Shown here: positions 1 to 42,113 of the stretch, one piece after another
Layout: every line of letters begins with the position of its first letter
Position numbering within the stretch: the first letter of the stretch is position 1
From: an uncultured Candidatus Saccharibacteria bacterium
GTDB taxonomy: Bacteria; Patescibacteriota; Minisyncoccia; Phycocordibacterales; CALRHW01
Length of the DNA stretch: 64,000 nucleotides
Direction: 5' to 3'
Assembly (NCBI GenBank): GCA_964390845.1
Contig: CAYMIL010000002.1
Location: 108,593 to 172,592 of the forward strand
Program-made: the position numbers and the translations under genes
Notes under the pieces: generated by a model
What the model was told of the DNA's origin: nothing
What the model saw: the letters and a program-made list of their open reading frames with translations, nothing else
Databases searched by the model: none

Positions 1-117
1 CACAGACAGAAAGACTACGCCAAGAGAAAGTGCAACAAAAAAAGATGCTATCAACTTCATGCGTTAATTGTAGTGCAAAAATAGCTCTGGTACAATGAAT
101 GAGTACTTCACTCTTTT

Positions 118-1113
118 ATGAAACTTCCAAGCAAAAAAATACTTCTCGTCCTTGTGGCATGTATTGGGGCAGTAGCAATTGTACTTTTTGCAACACGCAT
201 GAACGCATCACCCGCAGTAGAGACGCCTGTTGTACAAAAAAATACTCCGGCAGTCATCGACGTTGCGACACAAAATACCGCAACACTCGATAGCGATAAT
301 GACGGTCTCAAAGACTGGGAAGAAGTGTTATGGAATACTGATCCACACAAAGCAGACAGCAACGACAACGGCATTACAGATGGGGAAGAAATTGCGCTCA
401 AAAAGACAACTCTCCACGATACACCTATCGCAGATGCGACAAGCGCTGAAGAAAAAAAGACAACACAATCCACCCCAACAGGACCACTAACACTCACGGA
501 CCAACTCGCCCGCAATGCGTTTAACGCATACGTATCATTTAAACAGGCCGGTGGAACAGTTGACGCAACAAATGCACAAGACATCGCTCAAAGTATTCTC
601 TCAAACAACCCCCTCACACAACAGATTCCAAAATTTTCTACCCAACACCTTACACACATTATCGACAACGAAACCAGCGACGATATACACACATACGGCA
701 ATGAGCTCTGGGATGTGATGGTGCGCAATACCCCAACGGGGGAGCGAGAAGATGAATTTTCAATCTTTCTCAGTGCGGTACAAAAAGAACGCCCTCAAGA
801 CCTAGCGAAGCTCGACCCCATTATCACTGGCTACGAAAATACCATTCGCGACTTACTCGCCATGAATGTACCTCGAGGAGCAGTGAGCGCCCACCTTGCT
901 CTTATCAACCAAGCAAACATCATACTTGGATATATCCAGGATATGCGTGGATATTTTGAAGACAGCGCTCGTGGTCTTGGTGCGCTCATGTATTACCGAC
1001 CACAATCTGCCGAACTAGAAAAAGCTTTTACTGCAATCATTTCATATTTATCAAATCAAGGAGTGGCGTATGTGGAAGGCGACGGTGGATACGCACTTGT
1101 GCATAGTATATAA
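118..1113 (+). CDS. Membrane-anchored/secreted protein with TSP3-like calcium-binding DxDxDG repeats
   Basis: N-terminal hydrophobic segment (LLVLVACIGAVAIVLFA); repeats DSDNDGLKDWEE and DSNDNGITDGEE; first gene of T4SS-like island. Confidence 0.5.
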   Translation: MKLPSKKILLVLVACIGAVAIVLFATRMNASPAVETPVVQKNTPAVIDVATQNTATLDSDNDGLKDWEEVLWNTDPHKADSNDNGITDGEEIALKKTTLHDTPIADATSAEEKKTTQSTPTGPLTLTDQLARNAFNAYVSFKQAGGTVDATNAQDIAQSILSNNPLTQQIPKFSTQHLTHIIDNETSDDIHTYGNELWDVMVRNTPTGEREDEFSIFLSAVQKERPQDLAKLDPIITGYENTIRDLLAMNVPRGAVSAHLALINQANIILGYIQDMRGYFEDSARGLGALMYYRPQSAELEKAFTAIISYLSNQGVAYVEGDGGYALVHSI

Positions 1114-1125
1114 TTAAGGGATACA

Positions 1126-2118
1126 ATGGCTATCCTTGCGCGAGATGTTGTAAAAATGTGGCGACATGTAGCATGTGCTGTAATCATCAGCATCGCAGTT
1201 TTTCTTCCGACACACGCGAACGCACAAGTTGCAGTGCCTGTTGTGGAGCTTGAAGGCTCTCCACTCCTCGTTTCTACTGTACAAACAACTCTATACGCCA
1301 ATGATATCGCGTGGAACAGCGCATACCTTACCGCAAAAGAGGCGGGAACAGCAATGTACAACGGCGTGCCTGTTAGCGGGGCACAACTACTTGCAATGCA
1401 GGGTGGTGGAAGCAACCCCGCAAGCGCAAGCGCCGACTCACTCGCAAACAGAATCCTAAAGCCACTCATCAAACAGTTTACGAACTCTATTGTTGCGTGG
1501 ATAAACAACGGCTTTCAAGGCGGACCACAATTCGTAACAGACCCTCAGTCATTCTTCCTCTCGACGGCAGATCGTGTTGCGGGCAACTTCATCTATACAG
1601 ACCCCGACCTCAACTTCCTTTGCTACCCACTTCTCAAGCTCTCGCTCAACCTCGGCTATTCAAAACCATTTAAAGATGAAATTAAATGTACACTGTCGCA
1701 GGTCATCGACAATGTCGACGATTTTACAAGAGATTTTTCAAAAGGATCGTGGCCAGCATGGTTTAGTGTTACTCAAAACCAACAAAACAACCCGTTTGGC
1801 GCATACGTACTTGCAGAAAACGAGCTCACAAAGCGCATTGCAAGCCAAATTTCGACAGACAAAATGCAACTTGAATGGGGAAAAGGCATACTTTCCGCAC
1901 AAGACTGTCTGCAGTCCGACTACAGAACTGGTGACTGTCTTCAGTATGGCCCGATAAAAACACCGGGTACCGTTATCAACGACCAGCTCTCTGCCGCTCT
2001 CGGCGACGGCCTACGCCAGCTTGAGCTTGCTGATGAATTTGATGAGATTGTCGGCGCTTTGATTGGCCAGCTTATGGATCAAGTAGTAATGAAGGTCGGT
2101 GGTTTGCGTGGCTCTTAG
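1126..2118 (+). CDS. Hypothetical secreted protein
   Basis: Signal-peptide-like N-terminus (AVIISIAVFLPTHANAQ); no recognisable catalytic motif; within T4SS-like island. Confidence 0.55.
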   Translation: MAILARDVVKMWRHVACAVIISIAVFLPTHANAQVAVPVVELEGSPLLVSTVQTTLYANDIAWNSAYLTAKEAGTAMYNGVPVSGAQLLAMQGGGSNPASASADSLANRILKPLIKQFTNSIVAWINNGFQGGPQFVTDPQSFFLSTADRVAGNFIYTDPDLNFLCYPLLKLSLNLGYSKPFKDEIKCTLSQVIDNVDDFTRDFSKGSWPAWFSVTQNQQNNPFGAYVLAENELTKRIASQISTDKMQLEWGKGILSAQDCLQSDYRTGDCLQYGPIKTPGTVINDQLSAALGDGLRQLELADEFDEIVGALIGQLMDQVVMKVGGLRGS

Positions 2119-2130
2119 TCGGTACAACAC

Positions 2131-4416
2131 ATGAAGTTCATGTTTAAAAAAAGAATAGCACCACTTCTCTGTGTACTCATTCTCTTGGGAGGCTTTTTTC
2201 TAGCGACTCCCGCGACTGCGCATGCTAATGAAGTTTTATACTCTACCCTAAATGCAATAAATCCAGGGCTTGGGGCGGCGTATTTAGCATACGAATCAGG
2301 TGTTTCAATAGAGAGCCTACTTGCGCACATGCTTGCAAGCATTGGTGCACTTGTCATCATGGTGGCGGGCTGGTTTCTTGGTGTTGCAGGCATGCTTCTT
2401 GATTTTGTCATCAAATACACGGTTGTCTCAATGTCAGAAACAATATCCAACACACGAGCTATCAATACCGCATGGACAGTATTTCGAGATTTGGCAAACA
2501 TGTTCTTTATTTTCATCCTGATCTATGAAGCAATACGAACAATTCTTGGTATATCTGGGGTCAGCGCAAAAAAAGTGCTCACCAACGTCATCATCGTCGC
2601 GCTCCTTCTCAACTTCAGCCTCTTCTTCACAAAGATAATGATTGACGCCTCAAACATTGTTACTCTTGGTTTTTATAACAAGGTTACTGAGATGAGTGGG
2701 GGAAACAACACCACTGTCGGAGAGCATATCGGCCTCGCTGGTCCATTTCTTGCAAAAATGGGTCTCACCGGTCTCTTTAGTATTGATTCTGTTGTGGCTG
2801 GAAGTAATGGTGTGCTTGCTGGTGGGAACCTAAAAACAATCGGGATTAATGCACTCCTTGCGTCAACATTTCTCTTTATTACGGGAATGGTTTTTTGGGC
2901 CGCAAATATAATGTTTATTTCTCGGTTCGTCACACTCGTATTCCTCATGATTCTTTCACCAATTGCATTCGCGGGTGCAGTTATTCCTGACGCGGGAATG
3001 TCTAAAAAATGGTGGAAGGGTCTTTTCAGCAATCTTTTTTTTGCACCAGCATACATGGCGATGGTGTGGGTAAGTATTGTTGTTCTCGACGGTGTCCTCC
3101 CAAAACGAGACCCCACAAAATGGGCACAGGTGCTTGTGGCAAACGGAGGCGTGGTGCCCTCTGAAGACGCACTCGGCTTAATCCTCAGTTGGATTATTGT
3201 GTGCGCAATGATTATCGGCTGTCTCATTGTTGCAAAAGATTTTGGCGCCAAGGGCGCAGATTCCGCTTTGGAAAGACTCAAAAAATGGGGGGCATCTGCT
3301 CGAGACTGGACAGCGGGCAAGGTTGGCCGAACAGCACTTCGTGCTACAGGCGTTACTGGTCTCGATAAGCGAATTCGAGAAAGCAAATTTGGTGAAACAT
3401 GGTACGGAGATATGTTCCGACGGGCAACAACGGGTGCCGTCCTTAATAAAAAGGTTTATGGGCGCTCTATCAATGATGCCAACAAAGATGCTAAAAAACG
3501 TGGCGAAGAGAGAGCAAACCAAGCAGACGAAAATGCTAGACGACGTGCTGCGACAGCATTTGAAGAAAATCTTGAGAGTACCCGACAAAACCGCTCTAGC
3601 GATCTCTCAAGCGCTATCAACAACCAATACATAGCAAATCAACAAACTCGAAATGCTGCGACAGCTGCAGCTGCTGCACAGGCACACGTTGTTGCTCAGA
3701 CGTCTGGTGACCGCATGACACCTGAAGAGATAGAAAATCTCGCAAAGGAAATTTCTGCCGAAGAAGCAGTATTACGAAATCCGACAATCTTTATTTCTAC
3801 AACTGAACGAGCAGACAAGCAGAATCGTATCAATGACGCAAAAGCAAAAATTGCACGGGCAAACGCCGCGGAAAAGGCTGTGGCAGACGCAACAAAGGAA
3901 GCGAAGGAGAAGGAGGAGGAACATAAAAAAGGACTCGAGAAACATGCGCAACTCGTTGAAGACAAGAGGAAGATTGACGACCTTATCCGCACAAAAGCGA
4001 AGGCAACCAAAGAAGAGGTGGAGGACGCGAAAACAGGAATTAATGCCCACATTTCTCGAGAGCTCAATAGAACCGCCGATACTATCAGTAGCAAGAGAAG
4101 GGGTTATAAGGAACGCCAAGAAGCGGCAGAAAGACGATACGCTCGCGCACTTGAAAAACTACGCAATAGCAACGGCATGATTGAGGAGTTTGTACGCACA
4201 ATACCGTGGGTTGTGGAGGGCGCTCGCTCTGCACGTGTTGTAAACTGGGCCGCAAGCGCAGTCCAAAATGCGTATCGCGAGGCACGAAGTTCGAGCAGTG
4301 AGACGGCCGCAAAGAAACTTCGAGATGCGGCAAAAAATCCTGGAAAGAAGAAAAGGGAGGAGATTATCGCTGAATTTCTAAGAAAAGAAGAAGAAAAGGA
4401 AGAAGGAAAAAAGTAA
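2131..4416 (+). CDS. VirB6/TrbL-like polytopic membrane protein with long charged C-terminal coiled-coil tail
   Basis: Signal peptide, then about 8 hydrophobic helices over the first ~390 aa, then ~370 aa K/E/A-rich tail; adjacent to VirB4. Confidence 0.5.
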   Translation: MKFMFKKRIAPLLCVLILLGGFFLATPATAHANEVLYSTLNAINPGLGAAYLAYESGVSIESLLAHMLASIGALVIMVAGWFLGVAGMLLDFVIKYTVVSMSETISNTRAINTAWTVFRDLANMFFIFILIYEAIRTILGISGVSAKKVLTNVIIVALLLNFSLFFTKIMIDASNIVTLGFYNKVTEMSGGNNTTVGEHIGLAGPFLAKMGLTGLFSIDSVVAGSNGVLAGGNLKTIGINALLASTFLFITGMVFWAANIMFISRFVTLVFLMILSPIAFAGAVIPDAGMSKKWWKGLFSNLFFAPAYMAMVWVSIVVLDGVLPKRDPTKWAQVLVANGGVVPSEDALGLILSWIIVCAMIIGCLIVAKDFGAKGADSALERLKKWGASARDWTAGKVGRTALRATGVTGLDKRIRESKFGETWYGDMFRRATTGAVLNKKVYGRSINDANKDAKKRGEERANQADENARRRAATAFEENLESTRQNRSSDLSSAINNQYIANQQTRNAATAAAAAQAHVVAQTSGDRMTPEEIENLAKEISAEEAVLRNPTIFISTTERADKQNRINDAKAKIARANAAEKAVADATKEAKEKEEEHKKGLEKHAQLVEDKRKIDDLIRTKAKATKEEVEDAKTGINAHISRELNRTADTISSKRRGYKERQEAAERRYARALEKLRNSNGMIEEFVRTIPWVVEGARSARVVNWAASAVQNAYREARSSSSETAAKKLRDAAKNPGKKKREEIIAEFLRKEEEKEEGKK

Positions 4417-4458
4417 GGACGAGTGAACACTTGAATAAATAACATTTATAATACACAC

Positions 4459-5106
4459 ATGAATGATCAAGAACTACAAGAAACCTTAAGCGCACGATGG
4501 AAAGAACTTCCCGAGAACGTTCGGGCACTTATACTTTCTCCTGATTTCAAAAAAACCATCGGGGATATTGGGACACAATACAGTCTCTCAGCAGACCAAC
4601 AAGATGCACTGTATCAAGAAACATTTTTTGTCGTATTTGGCATCATTCACCTCATGGACTTCACCGACAACGTCGAGCGGGAAGTTGCCGTTTCAAAAGA
4701 ACAGGCCCGCACACTCGCTCGCGAGGTCGGCAACCGACTGTTCGTTACAATAAAAGACTATCTCAAAGAGCGGGGGGACGAGCTCGAAGCTTCAAAAAAA
4801 GAGAGTGCTCCGGAAGATGGACCCGCACAATCAGCAGATGAGGCAATCGCCGGCGTACAAATCGAGCCAACAATCGAAGCACCCTCCACACAAGAAGAAA
4901 CCTCAACAATCGATCGAGAAAAACTCCTCAAAGAAATTGAGCAACCAAGCACAATAGCTCCAACCCCTCAAAACACCTCACGGACTACTATCGACAGCAA
5001 GCTCAGTACGGTCGTAAAGATTCCAACAGAGTCCGTGCATGTAGACATGAATAAACCCACAAACTCATATAAAGGCCAAGACCCATACAGAGAGCCCCTT
5101 GAGTAA
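4459..5106 (+). CDS. Hypothetical acidic protein (T4SS island)
   Basis: Long ORF in a tight same-strand array; no motif recognised. Confidence 0.5.
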   Translation: MNDQELQETLSARWKELPENVRALILSPDFKKTIGDIGTQYSLSADQQDALYQETFFVVFGIIHLMDFTDNVEREVAVSKEQARTLAREVGNRLFVTIKDYLKERGDELEASKKESAPEDGPAQSADEAIAGVQIEPTIEAPSTQEETSTIDREKLLKEIEQPSTIAPTPQNTSRTTIDSKLSTVVKIPTESVHVDMNKPTNSYKGQDPYREPLE

Positions 5107-5117
5107 GACGCCACGCC

Positions 5118-5561
5118 ATGCGATTTCAAGTTCCACAATTTACTGACGTAGAAGACAAAATCTTTGGACCACTGACGTTCAAGCAATTTCTCTATCTCGC
5201 GGGTAGTGGGGGAGCTTGCCTCATCATTTTTTACTACGTTCCGATTCGTCTTATTGCCTTTGTTCTCATGGCGCCGGTAATAGCCTTTGGTGTTGCTCTT
5301 GCATTCTACAAAGTAAACAACAAGCCATTTATCAATGTCGTCGAAGCATTTTTCAAATACGCAATCACAAGCAAGCTCTATATTTGGAAACACGATGAAA
5401 AAAGAGTCGTCTCTCCGTCGGCAACACAAGCCCTCGCGGCTCCTTTGTTGCCAAAACTGTCGAGTAGCAAACTCAAGGATCTTACTTGGTCACTTGATGT
5501 AACAGGAAATCTCAATCCTGTAGAAAAGCCAAGTACAATGAACAGAAAAAATGAGCTATAA
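5118..5561 (+). CDS. PrgI-family (VirB3-like) small membrane protein
   Basis: 147 aa; conserved FG motif (KIFGPLTFKQFLYL); two hydrophobic helices; immediately upstream of VirB4. Confidence 0.5.
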   Translation: MRFQVPQFTDVEDKIFGPLTFKQFLYLAGSGGACLIIFYYVPIRLIAFVLMAPVIAFGVALAFYKVNNKPFINVVEAFFKYAITSKLYIWKHDEKRVVSPSATQALAAPLLPKLSSSKLKDLTWSLDVTGNLNPVEKPSTMNRKNEL

Positions 5562-5571
5562 TTGAGGGTAT

Positions 5572-6219
5572 ATGGCAACCAATGCGCGCGCTTCTCAAGA
5601 TTTTGTACCCATTCTCGATGTAAAAGACGGCATCGTTACTCTCAAAGACGGCTCTCTGCGCGCCGTACTCATGGCATCTTCAATCAACTTCTCCCTTAAA
5701 TCAGACGACGAACGCGCGGCTATCTTGTACCAGTTCCAAGACCTGCTCAACTCGCTCGATTTTTCCATGCAAATTTTTGTACAATCACGACGCCTTGATA
5801 TCCGTCCATACATAGCGCTCATGGAACAACGAGAAAAAGACCAAACGACCGACCTTATGAAAATTCAGGTGGAAGAATATATAGAGTTCATCAAAAACTT
5901 CACAGAAACGACAAATATCATGACAAAGCGTTTCTTTATCATCGTTCCATACGCACCAGCGGTGTTGCAGGGTAAAAATCCCGTCACAAACCTTTTTGGT
6001 GGGGGGAAGCGTAGTGAAGCAAAAGAAAGCGGTAACCAGCAAAAGTTTGAGGAAAATCGCACCCAGCTTGAGCAGCGCCTGTCTGTCGTCGAGCAAGGCC
6101 TGATGCGTTGCGGAGTCAAAACGATACAACTGGGCACAGAGGAAGTTATAGAATTATTCTATAAAATCTTCAACCCGGGAGAGGCAGAGAAGCCAATACA
6201 ATTAGAACAACTTGCATGA
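5572..6219 (+). CDS. VirB4 N-terminal domain (separate ORF)
   Basis: ILDVKDGIVTLKDGSLRAVL...INFSLKSDDE pattern typical of Gram-positive-type VirB4 N-termini; stop overlaps next ORF start (ATGA). Confidence 0.45.
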   Translation: MATNARASQDFVPILDVKDGIVTLKDGSLRAVLMASSINFSLKSDDERAAILYQFQDLLNSLDFSMQIFVQSRRLDIRPYIALMEQREKDQTTDLMKIQVEEYIEFIKNFTETTNIMTKRFFIIVPYAPAVLQGKNPVTNLFGGGKRSEAKESGNQQKFEENRTQLEQRLSVVEQGLMRCGVKTIQLGTEEVIELFYKIFNPGEAEKPIQLEQLA

Positions 6220-8039
6220 GTATCTTTGGAAGCCTTTTTGGCAAAAAACAAAATACAACAGAAGAGCTCACCGGTCTTTTGCCACACGAGATCTACAAAG
6301 CACAAGCGCTTGATCTTAAAGACATCATTGCTCCGAGCGCGCTAAAAATCGGCCCGCGCGAACTTAACCTTGGCGACAAAATCGTCAGAACGTTTTTTGT
6401 AATTTCATACCCACGTTTTCTCGGAGAAAGTTGGTTTGCTCCCATCATCAACCTCGACCGAGTTTTTGATGTGTCGATCTTCATTCACCCCATAGATACC
6501 GTGCGCGTATTGCGACAATTTCAGAAAAAGGTTGCCGAGGTGCAGAGCCAGATTAATGAGCGAGAAGAGAAGGGTATGGTGCGCGACCCGATGCTCGACA
6601 CCGCATACCAAGATCTCGAAAATCTCCGAGACAGTCTCCAACAAGCACAGGAAAAATTGTTTGATGTTGGTCTCTATGTTTCAATCTACGCCGACTCCGC
6701 GCAAGAACTCGACAAAATCGAGTCTGAAATCCGCTCAATCCTTGAATCAAAACTTGTATACGTCAAACCAGCACTCTTTCAGCAAGAGCAGGGGTATAAG
6801 AGCGTCATGCCTATCGGCACAGATACCCTCGGCGTACACTCAAAACTCAACTCTTCACCGCTTTCGAGCCTGTTTCCATTTGTATCATTCGATCTTTCAC
6901 AAGATAGAGGGATTTTGTATGGTATCAACAGACACAACTCAAGCCTCGTGTTGTTTGATCGATTTATGATGGAAAACTACAACTCCATCACATTTGCAAA
7001 ATCTGGTTCTGGAAAATCATACATGACGAAGCTCGAGATTCTTCGCACACTCATGTTTGATACTGAGGTAATTGTCATCGACCCAGAGCGAGAGTACGAA
7101 TACATGGCAGAAGCTGTGGGAGGACGATACTTCAAAATCTCACTCAACTCAGAGCACCACATCAATCCTTTTGACCTTCCACCCCCTGGAAAAGACGAAT
7201 CAAACGCGAGTGTCCTTCGAAGCAACATCATCAACCTCGTTGGTTTATTTAGACTCATGCTCGGCGGTCTTACCGCAGAAGAAGATGCGATCATCGACCG
7301 CGCAATCACAGAAACATACGCGCTCAAAGATATCACTGCCGATTCTGATTTTTCAAACATCGAACCTCCACTCATGTCAGACTTCGAGCTCGTGCTCTCT
7401 GGTATGGAGGGAGGGGAGTCGCTTGCACAACGCCTTTCAAAATACACAAAAGGTACGTGGTCTGGTTTTATCAATCGACCATCAAACGTCGATATCAACA
7501 AAAAGTTTATCGTCTTCTCATTGCGCGACATGGAAGACGAGCTTAAGCCAATCGCCATGTATATTGTCACACACTATATCTGGAGTACGGTTCGCAAAAA
7601 CATTAAGCGCCGCCTCCTCGTGATAGACGAGGCGTGGTGGATGATGAAATCCGAAGACACCGCATCATTCTTGCTTAGTCTTGCAAAGCGAGGACGAAAA
7701 TATTTCCTTGGTCTCGCGACAATCACACAAGACGTCGACGACTTCCTCAAATCCCCATACGGCCTCCCGATTATCACCAACTCATCGATTCAGATTTTAC
7801 TCAAACAGTCTCCGACATCGATGGACAAGCTCCAGCAAACTTTCAACCTTACAGACGAAGAAAAGTACCTTCTCCTTGAGTCGGGCGTGGGGGAGGGAAT
7901 CTTCTTTGCTGGGAAACATATTGCGATAAAAACAATCGCCTCCTACACTGAACACCAAATTATCACCTCAGATCCTTCCGAGGTGCTTGCGATACAAAAA
8001 GCCCGAGAGGAGCTTGAGGCAACCGGTCAATCACAATAG
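6216..8039 (+). CDS. virB4: VirB4/TrbE-like type IV secretion ATPase (C-terminal ATPase portion)
   Basis: Walker A FAKSGSGKSYMTK; Walker B LLVIDEAWWMM; size and context. Confidence 0.8.
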   Translation: MSIFGSLFGKKQNTTEELTGLLPHEIYKAQALDLKDIIAPSALKIGPRELNLGDKIVRTFFVISYPRFLGESWFAPIINLDRVFDVSIFIHPIDTVRVLRQFQKKVAEVQSQINEREEKGMVRDPMLDTAYQDLENLRDSLQQAQEKLFDVGLYVSIYADSAQELDKIESEIRSILESKLVYVKPALFQQEQGYKSVMPIGTDTLGVHSKLNSSPLSSLFPFVSFDLSQDRGILYGINRHNSSLVLFDRFMMENYNSITFAKSGSGKSYMTKLEILRTLMFDTEVIVIDPEREYEYMAEAVGGRYFKISLNSEHHINPFDLPPPGKDESNASVLRSNIINLVGLFRLMLGGLTAEEDAIIDRAITETYALKDITADSDFSNIEPPLMSDFELVLSGMEGGESLAQRLSKYTKGTWSGFINRPSNVDINKKFIVFSLRDMEDELKPIAMYIVTHYIWSTVRKNIKRRLLVIDEAWWMMKSEDTASFLLSLAKRGRKYFLGLATITQDVDDFLKSPYGLPIITNSSIQILLKQSPTSMDKLQQTFNLTDEEKYLLLESGVGEGIFFAGKHIAIKTIASYTEHQIITSDPSEVLAIQKAREELEATGQSQ

Positions 8040-8050
8040 GAAACACCGCC

Positions 8051-8644
8051 ATGCATTCCGACAGTAAGATTACAACAATCACCGCAGTACTCATGCTTAT
8101 CTGCGCTCTTGGTATTGATGTTACGCAAGCGCTTCTTGATCTCCTCGACCTCACCCTGGTATTGGCCATTATTGTACACATCATCAATTGGATCCTCGAT
8201 ATTATGGGTGGTATTGGTTTTTTTATCTGGCTCAAATCACACGGGGTGCAGTTTGTGAGCGCAAAACGCATTTTAAGCTTCTTTGGACCTCTCTGCGCAG
8301 AGTTCTTCCCGATTGTAGATGCCCTTCCGTTGTGGGGACTAGGTATCATTCTCACTGTTCTTTCCGTTTGGGCCGAAGAATCTATTTATATACTCACCGG
8401 GTTTGAAGTCAGCATAAACAACAGTCTGGCAAACATGGGTAGCAAAAACACCAAACGAAAGGGTTCTGGGAACGCAAAGCTCCCAAGTATCAACAACATG
8501 GACAAGCAAGAGCTTAGTGAATTTTCAAATAAGGTAGGGGCGGCGCTTTCAAGAACACAACAACTCAAACCGATGCCGGCAACCCAGAAAGCTGGTGGGG
8601 TAGGTAGCACAATCCGTGCTGGTGCCTCTCGAGCTATACGTTGA
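8051..8644 (+). CDS. Hypothetical polytopic membrane protein (T4SS island)
   Basis: Four hydrophobic segments; hydrophilic C-terminal tail. Confidence 0.5.
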   Translation: MHSDSKITTITAVLMLICALGIDVTQALLDLLDLTLVLAIIVHIINWILDIMGGIGFFIWLKSHGVQFVSAKRILSFFGPLCAEFFPIVDALPLWGLGIILTVLSVWAEESIYILTGFEVSINNSLANMGSKNTKRKGSGNAKLPSINNMDKQELSEFSNKVGAALSRTQQLKPMPATQKAGGVGSTIRAGASRAIR

Positions 8645-8688
8645 ACAAACAATCGCGCGTGATAGAATAAGTTGGTAAAACTTTCTAT

Positions 8689-9687
8689 ATGAAACGCTTG
8701 TTTTTCTATGTAATTCTCCTTGCTTTTGTATCTTTCTATGGGCACAGTTCAAACGTGCACGCTCAGACACTGCCGAGTTTTTCTCTTCCCAATACCGCAC
8801 AGCTGACCATCACTCCTCAGTACCCCGAACCCAACCAAACTGTTAACGTTCACCTAGAAAACTATGCGTACAATCTCAACACCCTTGAGGTCGTGTGGTC
8901 TCTCAACGGCGTAGAACAAAAGCGGGGGATTGGAGAGAAAGATTTTCAGTTTACAGTGGGGGCGCTTGGCACACCGTCTACAGTGTCTGTGTCCACAAGT
9001 GCTTTTTCGGGGAGTGTACAGGTAGTGCCAACATCTATGGACATAATCTGGCAGGCGCAAACATACACACCTCCGTTTTATAAAGGCAGAGCTCTCTATA
9101 CATACCAAAGCGATGTGGAATTTATCGCAATCCCCGCAATTGTCGGAACAAATGGCGCACTGATGGACCCAAAAACACTTGTATATACATGGACACGTAA
9201 CGGAACCGTCATCGGCGCGGCGTCTGGGTATGGAAAAAATGTATTTAAGACAAGTTCGGGGGTACTCGCGCGAGCACTCACGATTCAGGTAGATGCCACA
9301 ACACCAGACAATTCAATAAAAACAACGCGTACCATCGAACTCGGTGGTATATCACCAGAAATTGTGTTGTACGAAAACCACCCACTCTACGGCATGCTCT
9401 ACAACACCGCGCTTCCAGAAACATTTAACCTTTCAACAAAAGAAATTGCGGTCTCCGCTGTTCCATATTTCTTTGGTGTCGCGCGTCGTGATGCTCCAAC
9501 ACTTTCGTATGAGTGGAAAATGAACGGGTCAACAATAGCAAACCAGGCAAACCCTGCGTCCCTTGTCTTACGACAACCAGAAGGAAGTGGGGGAGGTGAT
9601 GCATCGATCTCACTCAGTATTCAGGATATACAGAACATGATTCAGTATGCACAAAAAACATTTAACATAACCTTTGGAACAGAATGA
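8689..9687 (+). CDS. Hypothetical secreted protein
   Basis: Signal peptide (ILLAFVSFYGHSSNVHAQ); beta-rich composition. Confidence 0.55.
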   Translation: MKRLFFYVILLAFVSFYGHSSNVHAQTLPSFSLPNTAQLTITPQYPEPNQTVNVHLENYAYNLNTLEVVWSLNGVEQKRGIGEKDFQFTVGALGTPSTVSVSTSAFSGSVQVVPTSMDIIWQAQTYTPPFYKGRALYTYQSDVEFIAIPAIVGTNGALMDPKTLVYTWTRNGTVIGAASGYGKNVFKTSSGVLARALTIQVDATTPDNSIKTTRTIELGGISPEIVLYENHPLYGMLYNTALPETFNLSTKEIAVSAVPYFFGVARRDAPTLSYEWKMNGSTIANQANPASLVLRQPEGSGGGDASISLSIQDIQNMIQYAQKTFNITFGTE

Positions 9688-10169
9688 GTATGAAATATAC
9701 ACACAACATAGCGATTTTCTGTGCACTCTGCGCCGTGTTCTTCAGTCTTGTCGTTACACACGCACAAGCGCAAACAGCAAACCCTACTGGCGCGGCACCA
9801 AAAGAATACGCCCCGCTGAGCCCGCTACCAAAGACAACTCCCTGCGGAGACAACATTCCCTCTGGCGCCCAAGGAGGTAGTAGTTGCAAAACAACCCTTG
9901 CGACATACCTACCCGGCGTCTTTAAATTTAGCATCGGTATCGCCGGCGTTCTCGCTGTAATTATGATAGTGATTGGTGGAATACAGTACCTATCAACAGA
10001 CGCGTGGTACGGAAAAGAAGAGGGGAAGACAAAAATCAAACAAGCGATTGGGGGGCTCGCACTCGCAATAGCGGCTTGGTTTGTCCTCAACGCAATCAAT
10101 CCAAATCTCCTCAAAATCAACGCAAACCTACCTACAGTACAACCGTCGCAAACAACTTCAACACCATAA
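9684..10169 (+). CDS. VirB2/TrbC-like pilin-like protein
   Basis: Signal peptide, hydrophilic stretch with 2 Cys, then two hydrophobic helices separated by a short loop (classic VirB2 topology); 4-nt overlap with upstream gene. Confidence 0.5.
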   Translation: MSMKYTHNIAIFCALCAVFFSLVVTHAQAQTANPTGAAPKEYAPLSPLPKTTPCGDNIPSGAQGGSSCKTTLATYLPGVFKFSIGIAGVLAVIMIVIGGIQYLSTDAWYGKEEGKTKIKQAIGGLALAIAAWFVLNAINPNLLKINANLPTVQPSQTTSTP

Positions 10170-10173
10170 GACC

Positions 10174-11430
10174 ATGCTTCGAAAAATATTCATTATTTTC
10201 TTCATACTCGTTCTGCTCGCTCTCGGGGCGTATGCGTTTGTATACTTCACCAACAAAAAAGCGGCTGACTCGATTATGTCTACTGTTGTCTCCGTGCAAA
10301 ACTACTTTCCTTTTGGACAAGGCCCGAGCACCGTACCCGCACCAACAGACACCTCTTCCGACACAAACACCACACCCCAAGAGCCTGGTGTACCCGTAGC
10401 ACCGCCGCGACTCCGACAAATATATTCTTCTCCCGTCGCTGGGGCAGGTGCCTTTACTATCGCAAGTACGACAGTCATTAGATTTGTAGAGCGCACAACA
10501 GGCAACCTATACGAAGCCCGCACAGACCTAGATATCGTCGAGCGCATCTCAAACACTACCGTACCAAAAGTTTCAGAGGCGTTGTTTACACAGCCAGAAA
10601 TAGTCGTCTTGCGCTACCTTACCGACGGTAGTGATGTTATAGAAACACTTCACGGATCCCTTGCCACATCCTCAACAAGCACATCCACACCTCGCACACC
10701 AACTCAGCTCACCACAACATATCTATCGCCGAACATACTTGGTTTTGTGCTCTCTCCTGCAAAAACAAAAGCCTTTTCCTTGATTCAATCGGGTTCGGGC
10801 ACAGCAGGCCTCCTTTCAAACCCCAACGGCACAGGTCAAACACCACTCTTTTCTTCACCGATACGAGAATGGATCCCTCAGTGGCCAAAGACAGACACCA
10901 TTACACTCACCACAAAGGCATCTGCACAAGCAACGGGTTATCTATATTTTGTAAACACATCAACCGGCGCGATGCGCGGGGTGCTCGGCGGTATCTATGG
11001 TCTTTCAACAATCACCAACCCAACCACAACAAAAGTCCTCTACAGCCAAGCAAACCAAACGGCAACAGGTATTGTGTTGCGTATCTACGACACGAGTAGT
11101 AAGGCAACAGCAACCATCACCTCTGGTGCGACAATCGCGGACAAGTGTGTTTGGGGAACAAAGAACACCGATGTAGTATACTGCGCCATGCCAAAAGAGA
11201 TTCCAAACGCCGCGTATCCAGACGCATGGTACAAAGGACAGGTGTCTTTCAATGACACACTCTGGCGTATCGACACAACCACCGGCAACGCTCAGCTACT
11301 GGCAGACATTACCGCTATTTCAAAGCGCGACGTAGACGCATTCAATATGTCGCTTGATCCAACAGAGCGTTTCCTTGTGTTTATGAACAAAAAAGACCTT
11401 ACGTTGTGGAGTTACGACCTCCTTCAGTAA
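10174..11430 (+). CDS. Membrane-anchored Ser/Thr-rich extracytoplasmic protein
   Basis: Start chosen at MLRKIFIIFFILVLLALGAYAF just after the pilin stop; the track ORF 10081.. extends upstream into the pilin gene. Confidence 0.55.
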   Translation: MLRKIFIIFFILVLLALGAYAFVYFTNKKAADSIMSTVVSVQNYFPFGQGPSTVPAPTDTSSDTNTTPQEPGVPVAPPRLRQIYSSPVAGAGAFTIASTTVIRFVERTTGNLYEARTDLDIVERISNTTVPKVSEALFTQPEIVVLRYLTDGSDVIETLHGSLATSSTSTSTPRTPTQLTTTYLSPNILGFVLSPAKTKAFSLIQSGSGTAGLLSNPNGTGQTPLFSSPIREWIPQWPKTDTITLTTKASAQATGYLYFVNTSTGAMRGVLGGIYGLSTITNPTTTKVLYSQANQTATGIVLRIYDTSSKATATITSGATIADKCVWGTKNTDVVYCAMPKEIPNAAYPDAWYKGQVSFNDTLWRIDTTTGNAQLLADITAISKRDVDAFNMSLDPTERFLVFMNKKDLTLWSYDLLQ

Positions 11431-11436: not shown

Positions 11437-12180
11437 TTACTTATCGAGTTTTCGTTTGAGCACAATCTCTTGGCCGATTGTGAAAATATTGCTTGTAATC
11501 CAGTAGAGCGAGATCGCGGCTGATATGCCATAAGAGATAAAGGCGGTGAGAAGGGGGAGGACATACTTCATCTGCAAATGCATGCTTTTTGCCAAGTCTT
11601 TCTTGAAACGATCCGCTTCTGTGTCTTGTGCGGATGCCGGAGCTGGCGTAAGTTTTGCCGCCATAATTTTTGTCTGAAAGAATGTTGAGATACCAACCAA
11701 CACAGCAAGAACAATACTTTTTGAAGAGACATTAATCAACCCCAAGAAGTTCATGTTGATAGTATCTGCTGAGGGAGCGTGGATGAATGAGTAGAGTAGC
11801 TCTGTATTTACCACGGGAAGGCCTGAATGCCAGAACACACGGTAAAGCGCAAAAATAATAGGGAGTTGAATGAAGACAAGGAGTACGCTCAGAAATGGGC
11901 GCACACCTTTCTCTTTATAGAGTTGCATCGTTCTGAGAGCGAGTTCTTGTTTATTGTCCTTAAACTCTTCTCGAAGCTTTGCAATATCGGGCTCTATTTT
12001 CTTCATCTGTATCTGCGTAGCGACAGACTTTTTAGAGAGGGGGAAGAGGGCAAGTTTGATGATGATTGTAAACAAAATCACCACAATACCCACATCAGCC
12101 CACGGCAAGATACTAATAAGACCTACGAGACCATTGTAGAGGGGCTGATAAATAGCTGCGTGGTATATGCTTGATATCAT
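11437..12180 (-). CDS. yidC: Membrane protein insertase YidC (short form)
   Basis: Hydrophobic profile; position rpmH-rnpA-yidC; LYKEKGVRPF... motif region. Confidence 0.8.
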   Translation of the reverse strand: MISSIYHAAIYQPLYNGLVGLISILPWADVGIVVILFTIIIKLALFPLSKKSVATQIQMKKIEPDIAKLREEFKDNKQELALRTMQLYKEKGVRPFLSVLLVFIQLPIIFALYRVFWHSGLPVVNTELLYSFIHAPSADTINMNFLGLINVSSKSIVLAVLVGISTFFQTKIMAAKLTPAPASAQDTEADRFKKDLAKSMHLQMKYVLPLLTAFISYGISAAISLYWITSNIFTIGQEIVLKRKLDK

Positions 12181-12218
12181 CAGGTAATTGTAGCGTACGA
12201 GCGAACCCTTTTCAAACC

Positions 12219-12551
12219 TTAGCTGATACGTGCCTTCGAGAGGAGCACCCCGACATCCTTTCGTATGTCTTCAAAAGAAGCATTCGCGGCCTGTTGTTTT
12301 GCAGAAAAAAGGTTGTGTGATGGGTTACGCACGACCGTAGGAAGAAGCTCTCGAAGCGCAGCATAGGCCCTTCTGCGTATCCTGTTTCTATCGACAGCGT
12401 GTGGCGCCACCTTTTTTGATACAGAAACGGCATACCCCTCCTTAGAAGAGGGGGTATTCCTGAGTGTGAAGTATAAAGAATGATAGACCGATCCCGCACG
12501 GAGGACCTGCTGAAACACATCCTTCCGCATTCGCTTGTGTTTGGGTAACAT
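12219..12551 (-). CDS. rnpA: RNase P protein component
   Basis: 110 aa basic protein directly downstream of rpmH; HAVDRNRIRRR motif region. Confidence 0.75.
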   Translation of the reverse strand: MLPKHKRMRKDVFQQVLRAGSVYHSLYFTLRNTPSSKEGYAVSVSKKVAPHAVDRNRIRRRAYAALRELLPTVVRNPSHNLFSAKQQAANASFEDIRKDVGVLLSKARIS

Positions 12552-12581
12552 GGCGCAGGGTCGCGCAAAAGCGCGTGCCGG

Positions 12582-12716
12582 CTAGACTGAAAGTCGAGCT
12601 CGGCCTTTTCGTCGGCGTCGAGCAACTGTCTTTTTGCCACCCGGAGTCCTCTTTCGTACGAGGAAACCATGGGTTCGTGCTCGCTTTCGCTTCTTAGGCT
12701 GATATGTTTGTGACAT
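12582..12716 (-). CDS. rpmH: 50S ribosomal protein L34
   Basis: Manual translation: [44 protein letters not shown]; not in ORF track (<60 aa). Confidence 0.85.
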
Positions 12717-12772: not shown

Positions 12773-12841
12773 TTATTCACAAGTTATTCACAATGTATCA
12801 ACATATTTATTACTTCTCAACAAGTATCATCGTTATACACA
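12773..12841. promoter_or_regulatory. DnaA-box cluster upstream of dnaA (oriC part 1 / dnaA promoter)
   Basis: TTATTCACA at 12773-12781 and 12784-12792, TTATACACA at 12833-12841 (each 1 mismatch to TTATCCACA), same orientation, AT-rich. Confidence 0.5.
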
Positions 12842-12885: not shown

Positions 12886-14235
12886 ATGGATAGCAAGAAA
12901 CTTTGGGATAGTGTTCTCGTCGACGTTGAGATGAATGTTTCAAAGGCCAATTTCAACACATGGTTTAAAGATACCTTCATCTACAAAGTGGAAGACGGGG
13001 TCGCGTTCCTCAGTGTTCCCAACGCCTTCGTTCGTGAGTGGCTCATGAACAAGTATCATGCGTTTATCCTTAAATCACTACGCACCCTCTCAGAGGGAAT
13101 CCGCGCGCTTGATTATGTTGTGAGCAAGGGGGAGATGCGCCGAAAGGAATCTGCAGAAGCAATCCGTATACCAACACCAAGTTTCGATGAGCTTCCTTTA
13201 AACGACTTCTATATCAACAAAGAGGACAACCTCAACCCAAAGTACACCTTTGATTCTTTTATTGTAGGCCCCTTCAACGAGCTCGCTCACGCTGCCGCAC
13301 AGGCGATTATTAAAAAACCAGGTATCGTCTACAACCCCCTCTTTATTTACGGAAACACCGGCCACGGTAAAACCCACCTTATTCAGGCGATCGGTAATCA
13401 CATGAAGCAGACGTACCCAGACAGAAAGATCCACTACGTTACATCAGAAAAATTTACCGTCGACTATATCAACTCCGTCCAAGCAAACAAGGTAAATCAA
13501 TTTAAAGAGAAGTATCGAAAGTACGATATTTTCATCATGGACGACATCCAGTTCTTCTCAAAGAAGGAGAGTACTCAAGAAGAGCTCTTCCATTTATTCA
13601 ACTACCTGTATGACAATAACAAACAGATCATTTTCTCCTCAGATAAGCACCCCAACTACATCCCAAACCTTGAAGATCGTCTCAAGTCCCGATTCGGCGC
13701 GGGTATGATTGTCGATATTCCAGCTCCAGACCATGAATCTCGCATCTCCATCCTTTCAGCAAAGCTTCAACCACACAACCTCAACCTCTCCCAAGAGGTG
13801 ATAGATCATCTCGCAAGTGTTCTTTCTTCAAATATCCGAGAAATCGAGGGTGCTATCAACACTATTGTGTGCCACGCTCAGCTCAAACAAAAAGAACTTA
13901 CTCTCAATGAGGTAAAAAATCTCATCAAAAACAGCGCCAAACCTAAGAAAAACCTCTCTACAAAAGAAATTATTAAGATTATTGCTGACTTCTATAACAT
14001 TCACGAGGAAAGTATCTACGAAAAAACCCGAAAAAAAGAAATTATTAAGCCTCGGCAACTCACTATGTATATTCTCCGAGAAGATTTTAACATCTCATAC
14101 CCTTCAATAGGGGAGAAAATGGGAGGGCGGGATCACACAACAGTTATCCATTCATGCGAGAAAATCAAAAACGACCTTAAGGTTGATTCTGCTCTCGCAC
14201 AAGAGCTCAACCAGATACGGTCAATGCTTGTTTGA
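12886..14235 (+). CDS. dnaA: Chromosomal replication initiator DnaA
   Basis: Walker A GNTGHGKTHL; AAA+ and C-terminal DNA-binding domain pattern; followed by dnaN. Confidence 0.95.
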   Translation: MDSKKLWDSVLVDVEMNVSKANFNTWFKDTFIYKVEDGVAFLSVPNAFVREWLMNKYHAFILKSLRTLSEGIRALDYVVSKGEMRRKESAEAIRIPTPSFDELPLNDFYINKEDNLNPKYTFDSFIVGPFNELAHAAAQAIIKKPGIVYNPLFIYGNTGHGKTHLIQAIGNHMKQTYPDRKIHYVTSEKFTVDYINSVQANKVNQFKEKYRKYDIFIMDDIQFFSKKESTQEELFHLFNYLYDNNKQIIFSSDKHPNYIPNLEDRLKSRFGAGMIVDIPAPDHESRISILSAKLQPHNLNLSQEVIDHLASVLSSNIREIEGAINTIVCHAQLKQKELTLNEVKNLIKNSAKPKKNLSTKEIIKIIADFYNIHEESIYEKTRKKEIIKPRQLTMYILREDFNISYPSIGEKMGGRDHTTVIHSCEKIKNDLKVDSALAQELNQIRSMLV

Positions 14236-14269
14236 CGTTTCTAGGGATGTGTATATCATGGGGAAAGAC

Positions 14270-14464
14270 GTGGATTACTGTTGAAAAGTCTGGTGGTTTA
14301 AAGGAGACCTCAATCCTATTCCCACCTTACCAAATCTAATCCACACCTTATTCTCCACCAAAACATACTTTTATGGCTATAAATAAGGGTTCCACGACTT
14401 ATCCAGTTATCAACACCATCTATAGTAATAATAAGTTATATATAGAAGTAATTAGAATATAGGT
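14270..14464. promoter_or_regulatory. oriC part 2: DnaA boxes plus AT-rich unwinding element between dnaA and dnaN
   Basis: TAATCCACA at 14336-14344, TTATCAACA at 14407-14415 (1 mismatch each); ~45-nt nearly pure A/T tract at 14419-14464. Confidence 0.5.
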
Positions 14465-15568
14465 ATGAAAGTAGAATGCATCGTCGAAAAACTAAGTAAG
14501 AACGTTCTACAAGCAGAACGAGTAGCAGGTAAGAACCATTCACTTGCTGTTATTAACTGTATTCTTCTTGAAGCAACTAAAGATGGTTTGGTTATTAGAT
14601 CGACAAACCTTGATCTAGGTATAGAGATTGTGATGCCTGTAAAAACCATATCCGAAGGTAAGGTGGCTATTCCATCGGGTATTCTTGGTACATTCCTTTC
14701 TAGTTTGGGTTCAGATAAAACAGTTACTCTTGAATTAAAAGAAAATAATCTTGTTGTTTCAACTGCAAAAAACTCGACAATTATTAAAACTCACCCGTCT
14801 GAAGATTTTCCTACAATCCCTTCGGTGTTGGGGGAGAAGTCTTTCAAAATTAATCCAAAAGACTTTGTACGGGGTTTGAAGTCTGTCTGGTATAGTGCGG
14901 CTGTTTCGAGTATAAAGTCTGAGTTGTCGAGCGTGTATGTTTACTGTGATGATGAGGATAATATTATCTTTGTTGCTACAGATTCATTTAGACTCGCTGA
15001 GAAAAAGATTAAAGCAAAGAAGATTCAGGATTTTACGAGCCTACTCATTCCATTTAAAAATATTCCAGAAATTATTAGGGTTCTGGAAGGAATGGATGGT
15101 GATGTCACTGTTAACTTAGAGAAAAATCAGATCGCGTTTAATCTTGAGAATGTATATCTTACATCTCGAGTTATTGACGGTGTTTTTCCTGACTACAAAC
15201 AGATTATTCCAAAAGAATACGCGACTGAAGTAGTGATGTTGAAGCAGGACTTCGCAAACTCACTGAAGATATCAAATATTTTTTCAAATAAATTAAATCA
15301 GATAAACGTGAAAGCACTTCCTTCAAAGAAGATGTTTCAGGTACAAACAAAAAACTCAGACATTGGAGAGAATACAAATACAATAGACGCAGTGTTTAGT
15401 GGGGAAGATGTCGATATGAATTTTAATTATAAGTACATTATTGATTGTCTCCAGTCGATAGAATCCGATAGTATTTCCCTTAGCTTTAATGGACAGAGTA
15501 GGCCGGTGGTTATTCGTGGTGTATCAGATAAATCGTTTCTCTATTTGGTGATGCCAATGAATCGATAA
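14465..15568 (+). CDS. dnaN: DNA polymerase III beta sliding clamp
   Basis: 367 aa; three-domain clamp-like length; position after dnaA. Confidence 0.9.
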   Translation: MKVECIVEKLSKNVLQAERVAGKNHSLAVINCILLEATKDGLVIRSTNLDLGIEIVMPVKTISEGKVAIPSGILGTFLSSLGSDKTVTLELKENNLVVSTAKNSTIIKTHPSEDFPTIPSVLGEKSFKINPKDFVRGLKSVWYSAAVSSIKSELSSVYVYCDDEDNIIFVATDSFRLAEKKIKAKKIQDFTSLLIPFKNIPEIIRVLEGMDGDVTVNLEKNQIAFNLENVYLTSRVIDGVFPDYKQIIPKEYATEVVMLKQDFANSLKISNIFSNKLNQINVKALPSKKMFQVQTKNSDIGENTNTIDAVFSGEDVDMNFNYKYIIDCLQSIESDSISLSFNGQSRPVVIRGVSDKSFLYLVMPMNR

Positions 15569-15570
15569 TT

Positions 15571-15822
15571 ATGGAGAATATATCGTCATTTCTTCAGCGA
15601 TTTAAAAAACTTCTTTCATCTCACGGTGCGGTACGACAGATAGTGGCAGAAGCTATTAAGCAAGAAGTTGGTATTGATATTTCAACTGAAAAAATCACTA
15701 TACAGTCTGGTGTTGTGTCGATACAAGCATCGACAGTGGTAAAGAGCCAAGTATTTATAAAGAAAAACGCGATCCTTGGAAGGGTACGCGCGTTAGGCTC
15801 ATCTATTTCAGATATTCGTTAG
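15571..15822 (+). CDS. DUF721/DciA-like small protein
   Basis: 83 aa immediately after dnaN; ITIQSGVVSIQASTVVKSQVFIKKNAILGRVRALG resembles the DUF721 pattern (G.L.V.V.SS.W..EL....K..IL..LN). Confidence 0.4.
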   Translation: MENISSFLQRFKKLLSSHGAVRQIVAEAIKQEVGIDISTEKITIQSGVVSIQASTVVKSQVFIKKNAILGRVRALGSSISDIR

Positions 15823-24099: not shown

Positions 24100-24234
24100 A
24101 TGCACTATATAGTACCACCATACTGTCGGGGGAAACAATCATGCTTGACGCTACCGTATAAAGGTGATATAATTAACAGTAGGAAATATCGAAAGACGCG
24201 CGTCTTTCGTACACGCATCTCTACGGAGAGACAT

Positions 24235-37631: not shown

Positions 37632-37650
37632 ATGGTATATAATAAGTGCA

Positions 37651-39156: not shown

Positions 39157-39161
39157 TTGCC

Positions 39162-42074: not shown

Positions 42075-42083
42075 CAATTTTTT

Positions 42084-42113
42084 GGGCCGCGTCCGTCGCG
42101 GACGGCGCGGCCC
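42084..42113. repeat. Near-perfect 30-nt GC palindrome between tRNA-Leu and tRNA-His
   Basis: GGGCCGCGTCCGTCGCGGACGGCGCGGCCC. Confidence 0.6.

Follow-up and report, generated by a model that had tools for sequence, protein, structure and literature searches.

An eleven-gene type IV secretion operon next to dnaA in an ultra-small Paceibacteria bacterium

Introduction

The Patescibacteria, or candidate phyla radiation (CPR), account for much of bacterial diversity and obtain what they need from other cells. A type IV secretion system (T4SS) is essential in Southlakia epibionticum, the sole Patescibacteria species tested by transposon sequencing (Tn-seq), and is now among the leading candidates for the structure that physically connects these bacteria to their hosts. 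Here, we analysed a 64 kb stretch of DNA (64,000 nucleotides of contig CAYMIL010000002.1; below, the window) from an ultra-small Paceibacteria bacterium of the CPR. Positions 118-11430 of the window hold a genuine 11-gene T4SS operon, which is an instance of a system already published in 2023-2025.

The closest described systems are the following. In Southlakia, the T4SS genes, including a pilin array, were found by Tn-seq to be essential for epibiotic growth (Wang 2023, PMC10633639). The core order there is VirB6-like protein, PrgI, a 293-aa protein and VirB4, near the start of the chromosome. The authors noted that coupling protein and relaxase are missing, and suggested protein export or "an alternative capacity" (PMC10633639). 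A survey of 3,035 genomes placed a Patescibacteria VirB4 clade within the MPF-FATA class (Quinonero-Coronel 2025, PMC12102498). Near virB4, it found TrsD, VirB3/PrgI, VirB6 and VirB2-like pilins with almost no relaxases; in Paceibacteria the system lies close to dnaA, dnaN, ksgA, rnpA and rpmH, and VirD4-like genes are far from virB4 in most Patescibacteria genomes (PMC12102498). A FEMS review of 2025 highlights the system, speculates on an uptake conduit and reports that loss of comEC in Southlakia abolished transformation and left viability unaffected (PMC12857230). A 2026 preprint on a cultured member describes host-penetrating tubes, possibly T4SS pili, together with uptake of host RNA, and leaves the mechanism unresolved (bioRxiv 10.64898/2026.06.21.733656).

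With a single pilin and a single VirB6-like protein, the locus in the window is a compact and complete example of the Paceibacteria form and can serve as an annotated reference locus. To the published picture we add a VirB4 encoded in two pieces, a cytoplasmic partner protein (g4), proof that the locus is not an island, a gradient of conservation, and first structural and compositional readings of the partner proteins.

Gene content and core components of the operon

The names g1 to g11 were given to the 11 open reading frames (ORFs) in window order, 118 through 11430. They are tightly packed on one strand with intergenic gaps of -4 to 44 nt, which fits a single operon. The proteins were scanned with hidden Markov models (HMMs) of Pfam and NCBIfam, and the matches were judged against curated cut-offs. 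The genes and their predicted products are:

g1, 118-1113, plus strand: secreted protein, or one anchored by its N-terminus, that combines a thrombospondin type 3 (Ca-binding) repeat with a helical C-terminal domain
g2, 1126-2118, plus strand: secreted protein with a mostly helical conserved core of ~230 aa and 4 conserved Cys
g3, 2131-4416, plus strand: extended VirB6-like polytopic membrane protein
g4, 4459-5106, plus strand: cytoplasmic protein with a helical N-domain, a Pro-rich linker and a C-terminal DPYRE motif
g5, 5118-5561, plus strand: PrgI/VirB3-like small membrane protein with 2 transmembrane (TM) segments
g6, 5572-6219, plus strand: separately encoded VirB4 N-terminal domain (TrsD/TraC-like)
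g7, 6216-8039, plus strand: VirB4 ATPase, central and C-terminal P-loop domains
g8, 8051-8644, plus strand: small membrane protein with 3-4 TM segments and a variable tail
g9, 8689-9687, plus strand: secreted, beta-rich protein, probably three tandem immunoglobulin (Ig)-like domains
g10, 9684-10169, plus strand: VirB2-like T4SS pilin, bare form, 161 aa
g11, 10174-11430, plus strand: bitopic membrane protein in which a disordered S/T/P linker joins a TM helix to an extracellular beta-propeller

The g7 protein matched the NCBIfam CD1110 family over profile positions 182-731 (E 6.5e-114; 381.8 bits, cut-off 325). Further matches were obtained with TIGR00929 VirB4_CagE (E 8e-38), P-loop_TraG (1.4e-28) and the TraC-F-type model. 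The Walker A motif AKSGSGKS is located at about residues 261-268 and the Walker B motif LLVIDE at 467. The matches and motifs identify g7 as a VirB4-family ATPase with intact Walker motifs. In a search of 5.8 billion proteins, all 8,000 of the 8,000 scored candidates were significant relatives of g7, and the top 120 were 82-89% identical to it and about 605 aa long.

The g6 protein matched VirB4_plasma (2.7e-10), CD1110 (2.6e-8, profile positions 11-119) and TrsD NF041427 (5.9e-5), and the public record for it carries a PF26593 TraC-like tag. It covers approximately the first 120-230 positions of several VirB4 models, and g7 begins at CD1110 position 182, which indicates that VirB4 is encoded in two pieces. 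The two genes overlap by 4 nt (ATGA). For comparison, we used 80 related loci, one genome per species, from Zambryskibacteria, Taylorbacteria and other Paceibacteria (L002-L081). A separate g6-like ORF lies ahead of virB4 in 79 of these 80 loci (206-221 aa in the orthologues listed), so that a sequencing frameshift is excluded.

The g5 protein, with two TM segments, matched PF12666 (PrgI) at E 1.6e-10 (41.8 bits, cut-off 27) and was detected in 78/80 loci. The g10 protein matched PF18895 (T4SS_pilin) at E 4.3e-8 (33.6 bits, cut-off 26.6), and more weakly the Mbov_0395 pilin-like family (5e-6) and TrbC/VirB2 (0.0088). Its signal-like leader followed by two hydrophobic helices corresponds to the VirB2 topology, and its gene overlaps g9 by 4 nt. 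Long orthologues of g10 are exemplified by L007:13445-14410, L011:12286-13128, L015:12922-13767, L023:13214-14101 and L062:13682-14488. A C-terminal H..G..D ... HWH signature, resembling that of LAS/M15 peptidoglycan peptidases, was seen in 12 of 55 g10 orthologues, and two orthologues matched Peptidase_M15_4 at E about 2e-3.

The g3 protein contains about 8 hydrophobic segments in residues 1-360, followed by a 380-aa helical tail rich in A, E, R and K. Its match to the Mbov_0396 ICE TM family (E 5.8e-4) was below the cut-off, and no Pfam TrbL match was obtained for the window protein. Among 33 orthologues of g3, sub-threshold matches, all at E around 1e-3, were found to TrbL (3/33, E at least 1.3e-3), Mbov_0396 (2/33) and CD3337/EF1877 (2/33). 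A profile search of the PDB returned only TolA-like matches to the low-complexity tail, and hhalign against R388 TrwI gave a probability of 8%, which does not support a VirB6 relationship. The gene stands a short way upstream of the PrgI-TrsD-VirB4 genes, an order that is also present in Southlakia. Taken together, g3 is a plausible but weak candidate for a VirB6/TrbL-like protein.

A preliminary description of the window had reported eleven co-directional genes with a VirB4 ATPase, a PrgI-family protein, a VirB2-topology pilin and a VirB6/TrbL-like protein. All eleven ORFs were found as described, and the HMM searches gave matches above the curated cut-offs for the first three proteins. The VirB6/TrbL call holds for the polytopic topology; Pfam TrbL does not match the window protein, and the other profile matches are sub-threshold.

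Synteny and conservation across relatives

Full 10 kb flanks were available for 46 of the 80 loci, which we call full-length. The order ksgA, an occasional minus-strand gene, g1-g11, yidC, dnaA, dnaN was found in the 46 full-length loci, with one exception in which g9 is displaced. Differences between loci are limited to which of the fast-evolving genes are picked up by tblastn. The g4 and g8 slots, often missed by this program, are filled in most loci by ORFs of matching size and topology. The GC content inside the block is 0.45-0.47, compared with 0.44-0.49 nearby. Neither an integrase, nor a variable insertion site, nor a deviant composition was found, and the sole recombinase of the window lies 30 kb away. 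The fixed flanks in 46/46 loci and the flank-like GC content indicate a vertically inherited chromosomal operon and not an island. The close VirB4 relatives that carry lineage names, and all 80 loci, belong to Patescibacteria, Paceibacteria or Parcubacteria.

An exact protein match was found on a 212.8 kb ENA scaffold, in which the 3.8 kb upstream of the window contain uvrD, ksgA and two small minus-strand genes. The search for conjugation genes covered all window ORFs longer than 500 aa and another 39 flanking ORFs. Neither VirD4, nor VirB11, nor a relaxase was found among the ORFs scanned in the 64 kb window and the 3.8 kb upstream of it, and the pair that defines a conjugative element, a relaxase and a VirD4/TcpA coupling protein, is therefore missing from this region. 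The sole ATPase of family PF00437, encoded at 22420-24138 on the other strand, 11 kb from the operon, is 572 aa long and of PilB type, and it contains an MshEN domain; it belongs to type IV pilus machinery and is not VirB11. Conjugation is effectively excluded for this locus.

These results bear on several statements of the preliminary description. It had called the region an island, which is contradicted by the fixed position between ksgA and yidC-rnpA-rpmH-oriC-dnaA in every full-length locus and by the flank-like GC content. The absence of a coupling protein, relaxase and VirB11 nearby stands for the window and the 3.8 kb upstream, where a VirD4 or relaxase gene just outside the window was looked for and only UvrD, KsgA and two small genes were found; the VirD4-like genes reported elsewhere in Patescibacteria genomes (PMC12102498) limit the statement to this region. 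With 11 conserved genes, the machinery is not really "minimal". The view that this is a CPR/Patescibacteria T4SS, probably used for host interaction and not for conjugation, agrees with the HMM matches, with the Paceibacteria/Parcubacteria homologues and with published work (PMC12102498, PMC10633639, PMC12857230).

The conservation of the individual parts was measured as the median pairwise identity over all pairs among 44 genomes, a set picked by VirB4 similarity to the window and hence somewhat biased:

Motor: VirB4 (g7) 80.5%; g6 62.9%
Housekeeping proteins: DnaA 60.5%; KsgA 49.8%; DnaN 48.1%; YidC 45.7%
Other parts: g5 52.3%; pilin (g10) 38.8%; g2 37%; g9 31%
Other parts, lower end: g11 30%; g3 26%; g1 23%

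Within these 44 genomes the motor has clearly diverged less than the replication initiator, while the exposed parts have diverged fast. The identity of 80.5% for VirB4 against 23-39% for the exposed parts points to a strongly constrained motor with fast-evolving surface parts. This pattern marks g2, g9, g11 and the pilin as targets in the search for host specificity.

Comparison with known systems

The operon shares the tested features of the Patescibacteria-clade T4SS (PMC12102498). A TrsD-like protein (g6) and VirB3/PrgI (g5) are encoded adjacent to VirB4, and a PF18895 pilin and a VirB6-like gene are nearby. The operon is chromosomal, beside dnaA, dnaN, ksgA, rnpA and rpmH, no relaxase or type IV coupling protein (T4CP) occurs near virB4, and the close VirB4 relatives are from Patescibacteria only. 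A difference is that an association with VirB1 has been reported in Paceibacteria (PMC12102498), whereas no VirB1-like hydrolase was found in the window operon. The locus thus has every tested feature of the family and is consistent with membership of the clade, as judged from the lineage names of the matches and the MPF-FATA-type best model.

In the case of Southlakia epibionticum ML1 (SEML1_0005/0006-0019), the shared parts are the VirB6-like protein, PrgI, the TrsD-like protein (SEML1_0009), VirB4 (SEML1_0008), PF18895 pilins and an adjoining exported protein of Ig/PEGA type; recognisable coupling protein and relaxase are missing from both. What sets Southlakia apart is a six-pilin array, a pair of very large VirB6-like proteins and the lysozyme/glucosaminidase gene SEML1_0006. 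The window operon has one bare pilin, one VirB6-like protein and no hydrolase, and in addition the g11 beta-propeller and the g2 and g4 families. The two organisms are of different classes, Saccharimonadia for Southlakia and Paceibacteria for the window.

The comparison with MPF-FATA conjugative systems comprised pGO1 TrsC/TrsD/TrsE, pCF10 PrgH/PrgI/PrgJ, the C. difficile CTn CD1110 family and the Mycoplasma integrative and conjugative element (ICE). The operon shares with them the CD1110 VirB4 model, a separate TrsD-like protein as in pGO1, and PrgI; with the Mycoplasma ICE (Mbov_0395-0397) it shares the weak matches of g3 (TM) and g10 (pilin-like). Unlike these systems, it lacks a relaxase, a T4CP, a VirB8-like protein (PrgL/TraM) and a hydrolase (PrgK/TrsG), and it is not on a mobile element. 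It contains a VirB2-like pilin, which Gram-positive systems generally do not have (PMC12857230).

The ComB system of Helicobacter pylori and the Ced system of Sulfolobus are uptake systems that lack T4CP, VirB11 and relaxase. The operon resembles them in its VirB4-type motor, in its polytopic and small TM proteins and in the absence of these three components, and an import direction would be possible on this likeness. Specific homology was not seen: the CedB match reached 35.4 bits (cut-off 700, E 4.9e-9) and the CedD match 13 bits. The outer-membrane VirB7-10 proteins of ComB are absent from the window operon, in which HMM scans found no VirB7, VirB9 or VirB10 homologues.

Accessory proteins

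The g1 protein has a single hydrophobic segment at residues 8-26 and matched PF18884 TSP3_bac at 32.3 bits (cut-off 25). It was found by tblastn at the same position in 45/80 loci.

The g2 family comprises more than 6,500 clusters at 50% identity and is without a Pfam model. A PDB profile search gave no relatives, a fold search gave no match, and hhalign against R388 TrwJ did not support a VirB5-like relationship. Neither homology to the VirB5/TrbJ family nor the helical-bundle VirB5 fold was found. As a functional idea, g2 may be put forward, weakly, as a candidate VirB5/TrbJ-like minor pilin or tip adhesin. The orthologues of g2 bear interchangeable, adhesin-like tails with Ig-like, discoidin, fn3 or InlB-repeat domains. 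Such exchangeable tails would be expected of host-recognition modules.

The topology scan of g4 revealed neither a TM segment nor a signal peptide, which indicates that the protein is cytoplasmic and not secreted. It consists of a helical N-domain of ~100 aa, a variable Pro-rich linker and the motif DPYRE (usually DPYREP) located 2-4 residues from the C-terminus. In this motif, D208, Y210, R211 and E212 are invariant and P209 is nearly invariant. The C-terminal motif region corresponds to window positions 5080-5106, and the rest of g4 is fast-evolving. The motif is present in 67/80 related loci, on the operon strand and upstream of virB4; in the full-length loci its place is the g4 slot, immediately before g5. 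The 64 kb window contains it only once. A role as a general secretion tag was rejected, since the motif is confined to the g4 slot in the window and in the 80 loci of about 20 kb each. No relatives of g4 were found in Pfam or by PDB profile search. Such a build is typical of tethering proteins that carry a docking peptide, and DPYRE may be a peptide of this kind.

The g8 protein has 4 hydrophobic segments. The slot after virB4 is occupied in most loci by a membrane ORF of ~110-320 aa, usually with 2-4 TM segments, and is empty in 9/74. The shared motifs are D..Q, WF..G....KR and E.IP....LP.WT, and no relatives were found in Pfam or by PDB profile search.

The g9 protein has a signal-like N-terminus and three W..NG-type repeats and was detected in 75/80 loci. 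Its family profile matched the Ig-like domains of phage T4 Hoc at E 8e-4, and other Ig-type chains more weakly. The protein is probably composed of three tandem Ig-like domains.

The AlphaFold2 (AF2) model of g11 (pLDDT 89.8, pTM 0.81) showed a helix at residues 2-27, a disordered part at 32-67 and an all-beta domain at 80-415. Foldseek matched this domain to the propellers of TolB, oligogalacturonate lyase and S9 peptidases (E around 1e-8, TM-scores of 0.4-0.5). On this model, g11 is predicted to be a membrane-anchored beta-propeller of a generic kind, with no specific family established. It contains an invariant C325/C337 pair, and the gene was found in 61/80 loci.

The preliminary description had regarded at least six operon products as secreted or membrane proteins without recognisable domains. 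This view has to be amended for g4, which is cytoplasmic, for g1, which carries a TSP3_bac repeat, and for g6, which is the VirB4 N-domain. Of the partners thought to be lineage-specific unknowns, g2 belongs to the very large family described above and g11 is read as a beta-propeller.

Proposed function and alternatives

We consider it moderately probable that the operon encodes a non-conjugative, vertically inherited T4SS of the Patescibacteria clade, which passes macromolecules between epibiont and host in a contact-dependent manner. As part of this explanation, the machine would be the Paceibacteria form of a machinery derived from monoderm MPF-FATA conjugation systems. A translocon in the cytoplasmic membrane would be formed by the VirB6-like g3, the VirB3/PrgI-like g5 and the two-piece VirB4 motor (g6 and g7). 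The motor would pull the VirB2-like pilin g10 out of the membrane and drive the formation of a filament or conduit outside the cell. The exposed proteins g1, g2, Ig-like g9 and beta-propeller g11, together with the small membrane protein g8, may organise the structure in the envelope and touch the host.

As to the direction of transfer, we would prefer import of host cytoplasmic material, e.g., RNA or nucleotides. The preference comes from the T4CP-less composition, which is like that of ComB and Ced, from a lineage without nucleotide synthesis, and from the RNA uptake described in the preprint. Import of host macromolecules is a tentative element of the overall model. A more detailed version, which as a whole is unlikely, assumes that a VirB4-driven pilin tube extends into the host and imports host RNA or other cytoplasmic macromolecules, that g2 forms its tip or a subunit for host recognition, with exchangeable C-terminal binding modules, and that the DPYRE(P) peptide of g4 docks to VirB4/TrsD and replaces the coupling protein. 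The DPYRE tail marks g4 as a possible substitute for this component.

Several points weigh against the proposed transfer machine. Sub-threshold matches underlie both the reading of g3 as VirB6-like and that of g2 as VirB5-like. Neither a VirB8-like protein nor a cell-wall hydrolase was found in the operon. In most g10 orthologues, the pilin domain makes up only the N-terminal portion of a protein of 200-430 aa, so that polymerisation into a pilus is not assured; the fused C-termini raise the question of whether these long-form "pilins" may be polymerising subunits or membrane anchors. The harmless loss of comEC in Southlakia implies that DNA uptake for transformation is not the essential role (PMC12857230). 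A possible distant VirD4-like gene (PMC12102498) would favour export.

Export is the first alternative. The same machine would deliver epibiont proteins (effectors, toxins or lytic factors) to the interior or the surface of the host cell, which would thereby be opened or reprogrammed. Recruitment of these substrates would fall to a VirD4-like ATPase encoded far away, to g4, or to a Sec-dependent extracellular intermediate like that of the Ptl and Brucella VirB systems. Effector translocation is the task of most non-conjugative T4SSs. In the operon, five products have an N-terminal signal peptide or membrane anchor and are therefore exported or surface-exposed, and the strictly conserved C-terminal peptide of g4 could be a secretion or docking signal. 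Protein export was also the suggestion made for Southlakia (PMC10633639), and VirD4-like genes lie away from virB4 in most Patescibacteria genomes (PMC12102498). However, T4CP is absent within 68 kb, neither effector-like genes nor immunity pairs are visible beside the operon, and DPYRE, being confined to g4 in the window and the 80 loci, provides no shared effector tag there. In Southlakia, moreover, the T4CP homologue is not essential, whereas the T4SS genes are (PMC12102498). We regard export as somewhat unlikely, yet as a strong rival of the import view.

Uptake of DNA from the environment or the host by a competence-type T4SS, on the model of Helicobacter ComB or Sulfolobus Ced, is very unlikely. 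The part list does match these systems in the absence of T4CP, VirB11 and relaxase, and in class ABY1 the T4SS is located near comF, recG and radA (PMC12102498). The CedB match that would speak for this function is weak (E 4.9e-9) and reaches only 35 bits against a cut-off of 700, and VirB4 groups with the monoderm conjugative VirB4 proteins of the CD1110 family. Transformation of Southlakia needs comEC, and type IV pili are reported to confer competence; the T4SS is essential there, whereas comEC is not (PMC12857230). The window also has type IV pilus genes of its own (PilB, PilM).

An organelle used for attachment only, in which a pilin fibre with adhesin modules tethers the epibiont and no cargo is moved, would account for the variable exposed parts, the adhesin-type domains on g2 orthologues, the Ig-like and beta-propeller proteins and the local absence of a substrate-recruiting ATPase. 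It is highly improbable. In Saccharibacteria, adhesion is already provided by type IV pili (PMC12857230, PMC10633639), and a VirB4 conserved above DnaA together with a retained VirB6-like channel protein exceeds what a simple fibre would be expected to need.

A decayed or minimal conjugative element (ICE remnant) with its relaxase and coupling protein just outside the region, which the VirB4 family typical of monoderm conjugative elements and the serine recombinase at 42188-43783 would favour, has a negligible probability: a mobile island or ICE is ruled out by the synteny (ksgA and yidC-rnpA-rpmH-oriC-dnaA flank the operon in every full-length relative), by the composition (no GC deviation) and by the absence of adjacent relaxase, T4CP and integrase genes, the recombinase is 30 kb off in a separate low-GC patch beside tRNA genes, and the high VirB4 identity with a fixed location across species indicates vertical descent (also PMC12102498).

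Genomic setting next to the replication origin

The neighbouring features downstream of the operon are:

yidC, 11437-12180, minus strand: Pfam match; outside the machine
rnpA, 12219-12551, minus strand: PF00825, 1.7e-17
rpmH, 12582-12716, minus strand: recognised from the L34 translation
DnaA-box-like sites, 12773, 12784 and 12833 (span 12773-12841): DnaA-box scan
dnaA, 12886-14235, plus strand: Pfam match
dnaN, 14465-15568, after dnaA: Pfam match

Only 6 nt separate the end of the operon from yidC, and the DnaA-box cluster lies at a distance of about 1.3 kb. The cumulative GC-skew minimum was found at about 12-14 kb, and oriC is accordingly predicted at about 12.7-12.9 kb, beside the operon. 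A 152-aa ORF at 12212-12670 on the minus strand, called in the public record, is probably spurious, because rnpA and rpmH sit there in other frames; it is also of odd composition and has no Pfam match. The other flanking ORFs encode PBP1, TyrRS, RuvA/RuvB, PolA, a MurE-like ligase, Fpg, an amidase, ThyX, dCTP deaminase, SHMT and ribonucleotide reductase (RNR), among others. A scan for promoters and terminators gave promoter-like sites at chance level only.

The whole operon is transcribed toward the origin, i.e., head-on to the replication fork, and the GC skew is negative on the coding strand. This orientation is kept in 46/46 full-length loci, which is unusual for a highly conserved and presumably highly expressed operon. 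The region 14001-16000, covering the dnaA-dnaN intergenic region and dnaN, has a GC content of 0.37 and contains further DnaA-box-like sites at 14337 and 14407. Together with the first group of sites it may form a bipartite origin.

Separate from the T4SS operon, PilM and PilO/T2SSM-like genes are located at 37579-38613 and 38620-39731, as part of scattered origin-proximal type IV pilus genes. In the region 41993-52046, which starts at tRNA-Leu and tRNA-His, the GC content is 0.41-0.43 compared with 0.46-0.50. Encoded here are the large serine recombinase (42188-43783) and, at 43790-44725, an HTH_36 protein. Class I RNR genes come next, with genes for a PNPOx-like protein, for an ArsR regulator and for a protein resembling multicopper oxidases. 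The region may be an integrated element that carries RNR.

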